Origin: Bdellovibrionales bacterium
GTDB taxonomy: Bacteria; Bdellovibrionota; UBA1018; CAIMNF01
Length of the DNA stretch: 64,000 bases
Direction: 5' to 3'
Assembly (NCBI GenBank): GCA_040380025.1
Contig: JBEIJY010000001.1
Location: 32,001 to 96,000, forward strand
Below are positions 60,001-63,000 of the stretch, one piece after another (position 1 is the stretch's first letter; each line of letters opens with the position of its first letter). The position numbers are program-made.

Positions 60001-63000
60001 AGCGCCACACCTTCAGCACCGGACGCTCGCTCCAGGAAATGGCACGCGACGAAGAGGCCCCGCACCCGAAGATGAGCCTCGAAGAGCTCGAACGGCTCCT
60101 TTAGTTCGAGTCTGCGACCGCGGGAAAGTACTCGAGCTTTTCGCCGATGGCATGCCCGGCGGGGATCGGAACGCCGAGCTCGTCAATGCGAAACACACTC
60201 ACCGGAAGATTCAAGGTTCTTCTGAGCTTCTCCATCGTTTCGGGTACGAAGGGGTGCAGAAAAATCATGAGGTTCTTCAGGACATAAAAGCTCGTGAACA
60301 AGGCATCCCGTCTTGCATCCTCGGGAAAGCGATCATCATGCGGCTTGAACTGGGTGAACAAACTGTTGATCTGGCGGGCGTAGTTCTCGATCAAGTTCAA
60401 AAGCGTCCCATACTCAGCGCGCTCCATCGAGTAGAGGTACTTCTTCACGAGCTTCGCCGTCTCGATCTCGACCTTCTCGATCAGCTTCCCTTCGGGCACC
60501 TGCCCGCCGAATTTCGAATGACAGGCCGATACGGGTTTTTCGAAGGCCGCATTCATGGGTCCGGCAAGGAATCGATTCCGCTCCTCGAGGGTTGAGAAAT
60601 CAAAATTCGAGGACTTCTCGGGCAAACTCAGCATGGCAAGAAAATACCGAATCTGATCGGGAGAATACCCCTTGTCGTCGATGAGCTCGTCGGCCGAATA
60701 AAAATTGCCCGTGGACTTGCTCATTTTCTCGCCGCCGACCATGAGGTGAAAGCAGCTGAACACATCGGTGAGCTGGAACTCCCCTTCGATCGGAAGCCGG
60801 GTCAGGTCCTTCTGACTGCCGATCCACATCGCGCCCTGCATGAGCACATAAAAATATACATTGTCCTGCCCGAGGAACTGCGCGATGCGTGCATTCGGGT
60901 TCTTCCAGAAATCGGCATATTCGGCAGGATTCCGCCCCTTCGCCTTCAGGGCGACCTTCGAGAACGAGATCGGCGCAATGAGCGAATCCGGCCACACGTA
61001 CAGGGTCTTGCCCTTCATCTCGGGGTCCGCATCCTCGGGCATGGGAATTCCCCAGGGAACATCGCGGCTGATCGAGCGATGGGCCCACGAATCGAGGAAC
61101 TGGGAGGGGATCCCGCAGGATTCGAGAAAAACCCGTCCAGCCTCGAGGTCGGCCTTGGTGGCGAAGGTGACTGCGATTTTCTTGCCAGGCGCGTAGCGGC
61201 TCTTGTGCGCGGGAAGCTCGGCTTTCCGCTCTTTGTAGGCTGGCTCATGGACATTATCGAAGATGAGCGCCGGCATGACCGTTCCGTGCACCTCGTTGTA
61301 AACGCCCGCCCGCCACTTCTTCGCCTTGCCTTCGATCCAGATCCGCAAGGGCTCGGACACCTTCCAGAGATCAAGCCACCAGTGCACGGTCTCGCGAAGC
61401 TCGGGAACCCCGTCACTCACCGCCGATCGCGGATTTTGAAGCTCGGCCGGAAGATGGGCCGTTCCGCATTTTTCGCATTCGTCGCTGTAGGCGTTGTCAT
61501 TGCCGCATTTCGGGTTCGGACAGGTCCCGCGCACCAGACGGTCTTGCAAGAACCTTCCGATCTTCGGATCGTACCACTGCCGGCTCGTGCGTTTTTCGAG
61601 CATGCCGTTTTGGTGGAGCTTTCTTAAAAACTCCTGCGAGAGCTCCTTGTGGACCGGAAAGCACTCGGGGCTCGAGGTGCCGGTATATTTTTCGATGCTG
61701 ATCGAATAGCGGTTCAGGGTTTTTTCTTGCAGCGCATGGATGCCGTCGATGAACTCGCGCACAGGCTTCCCCGCTTGGATCGCGGCAAGCTCGGAGGTCG
61801 AGCCATGGTCGTCGGTCCCGCACACGAACAGCACGTTTTCTTCGCCGATCAGCATGCGCATGTACCGCGCGTAAATGTCGGGCGGAACCAGGGCTCCCGC
61901 AAGATGCCCGAGATGAAGCGGCCCATTCGCATAGGGCATCCCCCCCGTCACCACCATGCGTGCGGGACGGAACGTTTGGCGCTTGATCCACTCAATGTCG
62001 TTCGGATTGACGGGGGCTCGTTCAGGCTGTGTGCTCATCCCGATTTTATATCCTCACGAGGAGCAAAACCTCAACCCGCCACTTTTAAATCGAAGCGGTC
62101 GAATGTCCGCTTGCCAAATCAGAACGAACCCGATAACGACTTCGTACCGCCTTGGGAGGCTGCGTCAACCCAAAAGGTTGACAAGGTTTGGCGGAACATC
62201 ATTCGGGAGGAACAGCATGCGCAAGCATTTTGTTGTGTTGGGTTTGGTCGTTTCTTTTTTCGTTTCATTCCAGGCGGAATCGGCTCCGCCTGAATTCAAA
62301 ATCTACGAGTACATCACTCAGCTGGTCTACCCCGAGGGCAGGGTCGATCTTCGCATCGAGATGCGAATCAGCACGGGCCGCGAGGATTTCGCGGACGAGT
62401 GCACGCTGTCGATCAAGAATAGTGCTTCGAACGAGTGGCTTCCGATCCACGACGAGAAGCTGATCCGGTTCTCGAAGGTCACCTACACGCGCGATCTCTC
62501 TCCCGGGGTGAAAGTCCGCGAATGGCTCATCGCGAGCCCCGCGGACGGAAACCCGAAAAACGTGCGGAATGATCTCGGAATCGCGTTCCAGGATTCCGAT
62601 CTCCGGCAGACCCAGCTTTATCGCCAGTCGCTGAAGTCCCGCATCGAAGATGAGTTCTCGGCCATCGCAAAAGGCGCAACGGCCCTTCCCGAGTCACCGC
62701 GGGCGACGGCGAAGGCTCCGGTCAAGACGAAGAACAGCATCCTTTTTTACGAAGGCGATCGCGAGTTCGCACTGACCTTCGAGAAAAACGACGCGGTTCT
62801 GTCTTCGTCGGACGGCAAGTCTGTCCGCTTTGCCAAAGAGGGCGTCTCGCTGAACTCCCTGCACCACATCGAAGATGGCATTTTGTATCTGACCGGCACC
62901 GCCCGGATTTTCGACCTGCGGATGTTCGATGCCGAGGTTTCGTTCATCGGAAACACCACACTCACGAATTCGGTGCAACGGGCCGATGGCGGCATGGCCG

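Follow-up and report, generated by a model that had tools for sequence, protein, structure and literature searches.

The gene at 60101..62038 of the window, a 64,000-nucleotide stretch of a Bdellovibrionales genome (GCA_040380025.1, contig JBEIJY010000001.1), most likely encodes a glutaminyl-tRNA synthetase (GlnRS) descended from a methionyl-tRNA synthetase (MetRS) of the zinc-knuckle (MetRS2) type. Two routes to Gln-tRNA(Gln) are textbook knowledge: charging by GlnRS, or the use of a non-discriminating GluRS followed by an amidotransferase. The MetRS-like paralogue described here would probably constitute a third. It would be a class Ia enzyme of single MetRS origin, with pocket and anticodon contacts rebuilt, that takes the place of both GlnRS and GatCAB in the greater part of one Bdellovibrionota family and in some Clostridia, R. 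albus 8 being one, and acts as a T-box-inducible back-up where GlnRS is present. Charging of tRNA-Gln with glutamine is its most likely activity, given its mutual exclusion with GlnRS, its position as sole candidate route in 47 genomes and the glutamine-specifier T-boxes of its sister group. From the anatomy, conservation, single origin and distribution of the protein and from the T-box specifiers we infer that the amino acid is glutamine, that the acceptor is tRNA-Gln, and what each residue does. No description of this family or of a MetRS-derived GlnRS was found in the literature outside subscription journals.

Gene and protein architecture

The features used below are given in window coordinates.

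60101..62038, minus strand: whole gene, 645 aa, a MetRS-fold class Ia synthetase paralogue and proposed Gln-tRNA(Gln) synthetase (ATG-started ORF and translation; Pfam and NCBIfam scans; AF2 and Foldseek)
61931..61942, minus strand: GMPY, residues 33-36 (residue mapping on 1qqt, query 27 pairing with chain 6)
61904..61915, minus strand: HIGH motif, HLGH, residues 42-45 (coordinates checked)
61466..61522, minus strand: four-cysteine zinc knuckle of the CP domain, C173, C178, C188 and C191
61088..61291, minus strand: 68-residue insert, residues 250-317 (gap in MetRS sequences)
60962..61000, minus strand: rebuilt pocket wall YVWPDSLIAPISF, residues 347-359 (alignment, coordinates checked)
60833..60871, minus strand: GQDNVYFYVLMQG, residues 390-402 (alignment, coordinates checked)
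60743..60754, minus strand: CFHL, residues 429-432 (coordinates checked)
60713..60727, minus strand: intact KMSKS loop, residues 438-442 (alignment, coordinates checked)
60536..60553, minus strand: NAAFEK, residues 496-501, first anticodon-contact helix (coordinates checked)
60329..60346, minus strand: KPHDDR, residues 565-570 (alignment, coordinates checked)

A first-pass annotation had placed a MetRS-like protein of 645 residues here, with HLGH at 42 and KMSKS at 438, and the translated ORF agrees on each count. Taken as contig positions, the same numbers (window 28101-30038) fall instead on RNase HII, L19 and TrmD-like ORFs. Pfam tRNA-synt_1g does match in two stretches, the better one spanning residues 29-253, and the only other Pfam matches are tRNA-synt_1, Anticodon_1 and tRNA-synt_1e. 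The reported lack of an NCBIfam MetRS match above cut-off also holds: the paralogue scores 285.1 against the 336.35 required by TIGR00398 and 364.4 against the 587 required by PRK00133 (NF001100), while the MetRS equivalog cut-off is passed by the genome's own MetRS1 and in 285 of 301 genomes of the phylum. None of the 19 NCBIfam models matched by the paralogue is a GlnRS (TIGR00440) or GluRS model.

The AF2 model of the protein has pLDDT 94.3 and pTM 0.92, and its best Foldseek match is P. abyssi MetRS (1rqg) over the whole length (E 2e-40, TM 0.78/0.83). The same structure, 1RQG, was again retrieved as the best solved relative by sequence at E 1e-74, and the motif alignments quoted for it were reproduced. 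The paralogue thus carries the class I HIGH and KMSKS motifs on a MetRS fold. With the zinc-knuckle enzymes of P. abyssi (1RQG) and E. coli (1QQT) it has in common the whole-length fold, the tRNA-synt_1g domain, both motifs, an aspartate aligned with MetRS D52, the knuckle and a helical anticodon domain. It differs from them in falling below both equivalog cut-offs, in its insert, in forming a separate clade, and in having other invariant residues at positions 13, 256, 257, 259, 260, 301, 391, 395 and 461 (E. coli numbering).

Within the window, the gene lies among an HExxH ORF, an AAA+ ATPase, an M14 peptidase and an acyltransferase. Across 21 Bdellovibrionota loci no conserved neighbour was found, synteny being local and confined to one genus. 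Rfam has no match over the whole window, and among the PADLOC defence-system models no family matches P0001 or P0134.

Catalytic core and amino acid pocket

The anatomy of the core suggests a working synthetase: HIGH, KMSKS, the D52-aligned aspartate, the zinc knuckle and the MetRS-like fold are all retained. H42 and G44 are invariant and H45 nearly so among 110 aligned sequences, and knuckle residues C173, C178 and C188 are invariant in group A1. HIGH and KMSKS would form the aminoacyl-adenylate, after which the amino acid would be transferred to the 3′ end of the tRNA, as in the MetRS ancestor.

The methionine-binding residues of E. coli MetRS (L13, A256, P257, Y260 and H301) are all replaced, by M34, S352, L353, P356 and Y397, respectively. 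In GMPY, M34 stands for L13 and G33 for A12; M34 occurs in 100% of 75 family members and in five of six group-B proteins (the Clostridial relatives described below). The pocket wall YVWPDSLIAPISF substitutes S352, L353, A355 and P356 for A256, P257, G259 and Y260, and all four are found in 100% of the family as well as in three group-A2 and six group-B proteins. In GQDNVYFYVLMQG, Y397 takes the place of H301, while Q401 and G402 take those of W305 and P306; Y397 is present in 100% of the family, A2 and B. H431 of CFHL is found in 96% of the family and in 100% of A2 and B, where MetRS2 has F in 81%. By comparison, the frequencies among 26 MetRS2 sequences are 85% for L at position 13, 96% for A at 256, 81% for P at 257, 100% for Y at 260 and 100% for H at 301, and A256, G259, Y260 and H301, which are 96-100% conserved in MetRS, have all been exchanged. 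The claim that the replaced motifs are conserved in the family was confirmed, at 97-100% among the 75 members. According to PMC7041857, an E. coli MetRS variant for which a crystal structure with azidonorleucine, an analogue of methionine, was obtained has its three mutations at positions 13, 260 and 301. The alignment points to a pocket rebuilt to take glutamine, which is near-isosteric but polar: M, S, L, A, P and Y would stand in for L13, A256, P257, G259, Y260 and H301, respectively, with His431 added.

The insert, put at about 65 residues in the first-pass annotation, is 68 residues long and common to the aligned family; the eight MetRS2 sequences in the alignment all have a gap here, as does MetRS1 of this genome. 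In the predicted model it is a ferredoxin-like beta-alpha-beta-beta-alpha(-beta) module that is absent from MetRS. Pfam returned no match for the insert alone, and the fold search was unspecific, with a DNA polymerase N-terminal domain as best match (Z 8.6) and ACT and RRM domains at Z 6-8. These scores lie within the stated background of the tool, so no relative is claimed and the module is best described as a generic ferredoxin-like plait. It may add a contact to the tRNA.

Anticodon-binding domain

The first-pass annotation held the anticodon-reading domain to be lost. It is present, and constraint on it equals that on the catalytic core, columns at least 95% conserved making up 44% of the anticodon domain and 41-47% of the catalytic parts. 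N391, R395 and W461, the residues of E. coli MetRS that contact the CAU anticodon, are 92-100% conserved in MetRS and are all replaced in the paralogue by A497, K501 and H567, themselves 97-100% conserved. Within NAAFEK, where A497 and K501 stand for N391 and R395, the family has N496 (100%), A497 (99%), E500 (100%) and K501 (97%), and MetRS2 has G (92%), N (100%), N (73%) and R (100%) at the same positions. H567 in KPHDDR replaces the tryptophan W461; it is found in 100% of the family and of A2, whereas 92% of MetRS2 sequences have W. The domain is retained rather than lost and, with residues at its contact positions that are invariant yet differ from those of MetRS, appears retargeted. The helical bundle would have been redirected from CAU to a glutamine anticodon through the changes of N391, R395 and W461 to A, K and H, the last within the invariant KPHDDR.

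Distribution among Bdellovibrionota and exclusion of GlnRS

Distribution was examined in 301 Bdellovibrionota genomes, with TIGR00440 for GlnRS and TIGR00133 for GatB. Full-length matches in the phylum are 57-73% identical to the paralogue and score above 837 bits, and the next matches are true MetRS at no more than 43% identity and below 164 bits. The identities of 67-83% given earlier for the best 120 database relatives were recovered.

The paralogue occurs in 91 of the 301 genomes and GlnRS in 58, and no genome holds both, where 17.5 would be expected (hypergeometric P 5e-11, uncorrected for kinship; related genomes are not independent, so that such P values overstate the case). In 47 of the 91 carriers, neither GlnRS nor GatB was found. 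In one family of 67 genomes (f21), every genome falls into a single class: 46 have the paralogue only, 14 GlnRS only and seven GatB only. Listed completeness for the 46 paralogue-only genomes is 93-100%. When GatB was sought at a permissive threshold (E up to 0.01) in five near-complete f21 carriers, a single 16-bit match came up, and AsnRS was present in all four f21 carriers tested. Six genera (g18, g21, g28, g55, g56 and g97) include both species with the paralogue and species with GlnRS, eight of each in g97. A survey that covered 547 bacterial genera has GlnRS or GatCAB in each category of its table (PMC4206432). The proposed enzyme would do the job of GlnRS, and many Bdellovibrionota would have no other recognisable route to Gln-tRNA(Gln).

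Several observations temper this picture. GatB accompanies the paralogue in 44 of 91 carriers, among them the present genome; the paralogue is on paper not needed there, which counts against the glutamine reading. No Gln route of the three was found in eight of the 301 genomes, three of them 91-97% complete, so some genes do escape the searches. Two carriers hold a disrupted copy, one with an in-frame TAG (G026) and one split into two ORFs (G162).

The spread within the genus is patchy, as had been noted, with five of ten other genomes carrying the paralogue. The five that do without it likewise count against the glutamine reading.

The idea that the gene is an extra to a normal MetRS stands. 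The canonical MetRS1 (496 aa) lies on contig C5 and has HMGH, KMSKS, YTWFDALINYY, WFHAVIWP and DQAPWG, and a check of whether carriers always keep a canonical MetRS found one in 90 of 91. The part of the earlier proposal that saw a neofunctionalised paralogue still able to form an adenylate can therefore be kept: the adenylate-forming motifs are retained, the pocket and anticodon residues are replaced and nearly all carriers keep their MetRS, so that the protein is unlikely to be a working MetRS.

Clostridial sister group and T-box leaders

In a quick tree that included the insert columns, the paralogue family and a Clostridial group (group B) make up a single clade (SH-aLRT 99). Group-B proteins, such as WP_303161905.1 of Ruminococcus champanellensis ('class I tRNA ligase family protein'), have the insert and the pocket signature in common with the paralogue (GMPY, WP[DE]SL.AP.SF, DN.YFY and H431). 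G33, P350, S352, L353, A355, P356, Y397, H431 and N496 are 100% conserved in the family and group B, and nine signature residues are likewise 100% conserved in groups A, A2 and B; the paralogue belongs to the insert-bearing MetRS-like superfamily that these three groups make up. Group B is also extra to a canonical MetRS, in all five genomes tested. It differs in being only 25-29% identical to the paralogue family, in having KASSS in place of KMSKS, in the loss of the fourth knuckle cysteine and in other anticodon-contact residues. The differences at KMSKS and at the anticodon contacts count against the glutamine reading.

In a class-wide sample of 29 group-B loci, four are immediately preceded by a T-box in the same orientation, a low share that weakens the case. 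The specifier is CAA or CAG, both glutamine codons, in all four and never a methionine codon; in two controls the specifier-reading rule gave CUC before LeuA and ACC before ThrRS. A further T-box, in locus L147, is divergent from the group-B gene and belongs to thrS, and was therefore left out of the count. Upstream of Ruminococcus-like group-B genes, Rfam found no T-box in eight loci, the one T-box detected belonging to leuA, and a motif screen of 71 such loci gave two weak matches only. No such leader was found for the paralogue and its Bdellovibrionota family: a motif screen of 20 loci gave no T-box core, and Rfam has no match in the window. With no glutamine-linked signal found in the Bdellovibrionota loci, the T-box evidence is borrowed from a group that is 25-29% identical.

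The exclusion of GlnRS recurs in Clostridia, where GlnRS is present in two of 33 paralogue carriers versus 199 of 267 non-carriers (Fisher P 9e-15, uncorrected). Two Clostridial genomes thus hold both GlnRS and the paralogue, which counts against the glutamine reading; in R. albus 8 neither GlnRS nor GatB was found.

Other possible functions

An enzyme specific for tRNA-Gln might instead attach glutamate, as GluRS2 of Helicobacter does, and leave amidation to GatCAB. This is improbable, though several findings favour it. GatB is there in 44 carriers, including this genome, the group-B gene adjoins gltX in 20 of 51 loci, and a glutamine-specifier T-box would fit equally. Moreover, the solved MetRS-like domain of PyrN (9l8v), to which an analogue of glutamyl-adenylate is bound, shows that glutamate can fit a pocket of the MetRS type. 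Against it, GatB was not found in 47 carriers, 46 of them the f21 genomes at 93-100% completeness, where Glu-tRNA(Gln) could not be processed further and would cause mistranslation. It is also GlnRS, not GatB, that the paralogue excludes. Finally, the pocket residues are invariant in carriers with and without GatB, which makes two specificities within the family unlikely.

PyrN raises a second option, a tRNA-independent ligase that loads an amino acid onto a small molecule or protein, by analogy with the MetRS-like domain of hydrazine synthetases or with MshC. Hydrazine synthetases lie in a biosynthetic cluster with an N-hydroxylase, and their acceptor is a hydroxylamine, not tRNA. According to PMC12376268, they combine a MetRS-like domain and a cupin, and their amino acid substrates include Glu, Ala, Tyr and Ser. 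The likeness to the paralogue lies in a MetRS-derived domain with a pocket re-specified to another amino acid; PyrN is among its structural matches, and the insert could serve as an acceptor-binding module. Yet the paralogue has no cupin domain (Pfam), and neither a hydroxylase nor another conserved neighbour or biosynthetic cluster was found among its window neighbours or in the 21 loci. The match to 9l8v is weak (E 3e-15 versus 1e-74 for true MetRS; 19% identity), the anticodon domain is as constrained as the catalytic core, and a secondary-metabolite ligase would neither exclude GlnRS nor be the only Gln route. This function is very improbable.

The first-pass annotation favoured another amino acid, an acceptor other than tRNA-Met(CAU), or both, beside a full set of synthetases. 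An added activity of this kind, for a non-canonical amino acid or for an acceptor that is not a tRNA, is not supported. The pocket is indeed unlike that of any characterised synthetase, and carriers with GatB need no paralogue for glutamine on paper. Nevertheless, a non-canonical amino acid on some tRNA, or a regulatory role with an indirect GlnRS link, is highly unlikely. It leaves the 47 genomes devoid of a Gln-tRNA route unexplained, the T-box specifiers are plain glutamine codons, and the 40 tRNA genes include no convincing orphan, two odd ARAGORN calls (a 92-nt Phe on C9 and a Ser-CGA on C5) having been set aside for their mismatched stems. Distribution and T-boxes point to glutamine and tRNA-Gln instead.

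Resistant aminoacyl-tRNA synthetase paralogues, MetRS included, are documented (in a passage of PMC5388404), and the patchy spread, the canonical MetRS alongside and the MetRS-like fold and motifs would suit an inhibitor-resistant or stress isoform, the caveat raised earlier, but a second true MetRS is now very unlikely indeed, given that A256, G259, Y260, H301, N391, R395 and W461, conserved at 92-100% in MetRS, are all replaced, that the four sister-group specifiers read glutamine and never methionine, that no inhibitor gene cluster was found nearby and that it predicts neither the exclusion of GlnRS nor the 47 genomes lacking both Gln routes.

Comparison with GlnRS and class I LysRS

The proposed glutaminyl-tRNA synthetase would catalyse the same reaction as GlnRS and fill the same cellular role, and the two replace each other genome by genome. 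They are not related at the level of protein families and differ in catalytic-domain subclass and in evolutionary origin, GlnRS being class Ib. The anticodon-binding domain of GlnRS is a beta-barrel (in a passage of PMC11580382), in contrast to the helical bundle of the paralogue, and GlnRS is derived from GluRS, as a passage of PMC3927822 has it.

A parallel is class I lysyl-tRNA synthetase (mentioned in a passage of PMC2916919), in that two unrelated synthetase families for one amino acid are swapped across genomes. It differs in the amino acid and in that the switch there is between synthetase classes, whereas GlnRS and the paralogue are both class I. Class I LysRS is a precedent for unrelated synthetase families replacing each other, and the present family, if the assignment is correct, would be comparable, as a new family of synthetases for a canonical amino acid. 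It would then explain genomes that apparently have no glutamine-charging route, would correct the annotation of thousands of entries named "class I tRNA ligase family protein" or "methionyl-tRNA synthetase", and would offer a natural case of a synthetase that changed both amino acid and tRNA. A direct use of this example would lie in the engineering of MetRS pockets and of orthogonal synthetase/tRNA pairs.

GatCAB and asparagine in this genome

Synthetase content checks covered MetRS, AsnRS, GlnRS and GatB. They do not bear out the full set of other synthetases claimed for this genome, in which GlnRS was not found. GatB and AsnRS are present, AsnA was not found and AsnB scored below cut-off. 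B. bacteriovorus reportedly has AsnRS and GatB and no recognisable Asn synthetase, and its GatCAB is said to be kept for tRNA-dependent asparagine synthesis. By analogy, GatCAB probably serves the same purpose here, with the paralogue standing next to it, which bears on why predatory bacteria keep GatCAB. The AsnRS and GatB content of the two is the same, and the paralogue stands where GlnRS would be.

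Anatomy of the synthetase-like gene

The gene proposed here to encode a glutaminyl-tRNA synthetase lies in the Bdellovibrionales genome G000 (2.35 Mb, 53 contigs, 98% complete; window G000:C1:32001-96000). On one side of it is a convergent open reading frame bearing an HExxH motif, on the other a divergent double AAA+ ATPase gene. Window coordinates of the region are as follows.

57006-58091, + strand: M14 zinc carboxypeptidase (Pfam PF00246, E 5e-18)
58674-60104, + strand: 476-residue ORF, its 3′ end overlapping the convergent 3′ end of the paralogue by 4 bases
60101..62038, - strand: the MetRS-like paralogue, an ATG-started ORF of 645 residues, with intact HLGH (residues 42-45), four-cysteine zinc knuckle (residues 173-191) and KMSKS (residues 438-442)
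61956-64000, continuing to locus L009:7957-10848, + strand: 963-residue protein, divergently transcribed from the paralogue, with a pair of AAA+ ATPase domains

By Pfam, the paralogue comprises two tRNA-synt_1g stretches and a weak Anticodon_1 match. Among solved structures, P. abyssi MetRS (1RQG, E 1e-74) comes closest in sequence, in an alignment interrupted between query residues 250 and 318. The first-pass annotation had described a neofunctionalised MetRS paralogue beside a normal MetRS, and its description of the gene was correct: HLGH and KMSKS are kept, the top two NCBIfam MetRS equivalogs both fall under their cut-offs (364 bits, cut-off 587, and 285 bits, cut-off 336), and contig C5 encodes a separate, textbook MetRS1 of 496 residues. 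The AF2 model (pLDDT 94.3, pTM 0.92) confidently predicts a MetRS-like structure along the entire length. The 68-residue insert (residues 250-317) forms a small beta-alpha-beta-beta-alpha-beta module, for which fold search returned no specific relative.

Family conservation and replaced residues

Full-length matches to the paralogue occur in 91 of 301 sampled Bdellovibrionota genomes (57-73% identity to the G000 protein, >837 bits); the next-best matches are ordinary MetRS (at most 43% identity, <164 bits). The top 120 database relatives are 67-83% identical. Canonical MetRS is retained in 90 of the 91 carriers, the one found without it being G177 (93% complete, 130 contigs). E. coli MetRS numbering was mapped via sequence alignments to solved structures, and conservation was compared between 75 family members and 26 true MetRS of the zinc-knuckle type (MetRS2).

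MetRS residues replaced in the paralogue (E. coli MetRS residue; paralogue residue; conservation in the family; retention in MetRS2)
L13; M34; 100%; L 85%
A256; S352; 100%; A 96%
P257; L353; 100%; P 81%
G259; A355; 100%; G 100%
Y260; P356; 100%; Y 100%
H301; Y397; 100%; H 100%
N391; A497; 99%; N 100%
R395; K501; 97%; R 100%
W461; H567; 100%; W 92%

In E. coli MetRS, N391, R395 and W461 take part in reading CAU. The helical anticodon-binding domain is conserved equally to the catalytic parts, with 44% of columns at least 95% conserved versus 41-47% (75 family members). Positions 13, 260 and 301 are those mutated in an azidonorleucine-bound E. coli MetRS variant crystal (PMC7041857).

Distribution relative to the known glutamine routes

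GlnRS (TIGR00440, E ≤1e-60) was called in 58 of the same 301 genomes and GatB (TIGR00133, E ≤1e-40) in 229.

Combinations among the 301 Bdellovibrionota genomes
Paralogue only: 47
Paralogue and GatB: 44
GlnRS only: 17
GlnRS and GatB: 41
GatB only: 144
None of the three: 8 (five 65-78% complete, three 91-97%)

The paralogue and GlnRS are never found together (0 of 301 versus 17.5 expected; P 5e-11, not corrected for kinship, which inflates the significance), and six genera hold both paralogue species and GlnRS species. The 67 genomes of family f21 divide without remainder into 46 with the paralogue only (listed completeness 93-100%), 14 with GlnRS only and 7 with GatB only. When five near-complete f21 carriers were searched for GatB at a permissive threshold, just one 16-bit match emerged, and AsnRS is present in all four f21 carriers tested. 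In the survey table of PMC4206432, which spans 547 bacterial genera, every category has GlnRS or GatCAB, and Bacteriovorax marinus is entered with GlnRS and without GatCAB. The 47 paralogue-only genomes show neither GlnRS nor GatB; therefore, the paralogue is their only visible route to Gln-tRNA(Gln). The other 44 carriers, including G000, could manage on GatCAB alone.

Since eight genomes show no route, the searches must miss some genes. Three of these (G019, G022 and G171, 91-97% complete) lack the paralogue, GlnRS and GatB at the thresholds used; gaps in the assemblies, or a further solution of another kind, could account for this. In two f21 genomes for which the paralogue is the sole candidate route, the gene is disrupted: the G026 copy (C34:5865-7754) has one in-frame TAG, and the G162 copy (C1:150489-152356) is split into two adjacent ORFs. 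Sequencing error, recoding or real decay could each be responsible.

A wider superfamily and its T-box leaders

An exhaustive profile-free search located distant full-length relatives of the Bdellovibrionota family (group A). Group A2 comprises three relatives at 42-46% identity, one of which comes from a Proteobacteria MAG and bears the name "class I tRNA ligase family protein". Group B, at 25-29% identity, includes WP_303161905.1 of Ruminococcus champanellensis and is common in Oscillospiraceae, with at least 595 confirmed stretches, Ruminococcus albus 8 among them. All three groups have the insert in common, as well as the signature GMPY, WP[DE]SL.AP.SF, DN.YFY, H431 and N496, and a branch supported at SH-aLRT 99 sets them apart from the other sequences (quick IQ-TREE, 54 rows, insert columns included). 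Group B has KASSS at the KMSKS site and differs in its anticodon-contact residues. Canonical MetRS accompanies it in five of five genomes tested, and in 20 of 51 loci a true gltX is found no more than a few genes away, in many cases as the immediate upstream gene in the same orientation; one example (L063:6300-7952) is long, at 551 residues, and scores 297 bits to TIGR00464 (cut-off 290).

The T-box evidence derives from this distant sister group. In a class-wide Clostridia sample, 33 of 300 scored genomes had group B, and 29 loci were searched. Four have a same-strand T-box directly upstream of the group B gene, with the specifiers CAG, CAA, CAA and CAG, all glutamine codons; the identical column rule read CUC before 2-isopropylmalate synthase and ACC before ThrRS in control T-boxes. 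Among Ruminococcus-like group B loci, Rfam found no Gln T-box leader in eight and a motif screen gave two weak matches in 71; the Bdellovibrionota loci that were screened yielded no T-box.

GlnRS, present in 201 of the 300 Clostridia genomes, occurs in only 2 of 33 group B carriers, whereas 199 of the 267 genomes without group B have it (P 9e-15, uncorrected; kinship again inflates the significance). The two sampled genomes with both, G508 (locus L155) and G494 (L170), are among the four with Gln T-boxes, as would be expected of a back-up enzyme induced on demand. In G508 the paralogue carries one in-frame TGA. Neither GlnRS nor GatB was found in R. albus 8; GatB is present in four other GlnRS-less carriers.

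A candidate glutaminyl-tRNA synthetase

Groups A, A2 and B are most simply read as probable glutaminyl-tRNA synthetases that arose from MetRS. Methionine and glutamine side chains are alike in size and shape, and the rebuilt pocket, in which Ser stands in for the Ala of MetRS, Tyr for its His and His for its Phe, would, judged by alignment, fit glutamine. GatB and AsnRS are present in G000; GlnRS and AsnA were not found there, and AsnB was under its cut-off. B. bacteriovorus is listed with GlnRS, AsnRS and GatCAB, the last proposed to serve tRNA-dependent asparagine synthesis (PMC4206432). G000 shows the same pattern of GatB and AsnRS, but with the paralogue in the place of GlnRS.

A Glu-charging enzyme dependent on GatCAB is unlikely, as it fails in the 47 carriers without GatB. 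Also unlikely is a tRNA-independent ligase resembling the MetRS-like domain of hydrazine synthetases (PMC12376268; PyrN, 9l8v): the paralogue lacks the cupin domain, its locus lacks a hydrazine-synthetase-type cluster, and the conserved anticodon domain would go unexplained. A resistant true MetRS, likewise unlikely, would account neither for the loss of MetRS residues nor for the Gln specifiers and the exclusion of GlnRS. A literature search covering few subscription journals found no description of the family.

tRNAs and neighbouring genes

No convincing orphan tRNA was seen among the 40 ARAGORN tRNA genes of G000, and two weak calls, at C9:43231-43322 and C5:89864-89951, appear to be false positives. 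In this 53-contig assembly, ARAGORN found only two CAU tRNAs and no tRNA-Ile(GAU). The sole tRNA-Gln found has anticodon UUG (G000:C1:102085-102159, - strand) and lies outside the window, on the contig that also carries the synthetase gene and ~8 kb away from it; tRNA-Gln(CUG) was not found.

Genomic surroundings alone offer no clue to function: no neighbour of the paralogue recurs across 21 loci from at least eight families. The 476-residue ORF, with a hydrophobic N-terminus, an HELFH motif and no match in Pfam or NCBIfam, may encode a secreted metallopeptidase from a family not yet described. The longest ORF for the 963-residue AAA+ protein runs 83 bases into the 5′ end of the synthetase gene, so the protein probably has its true start further downstream.
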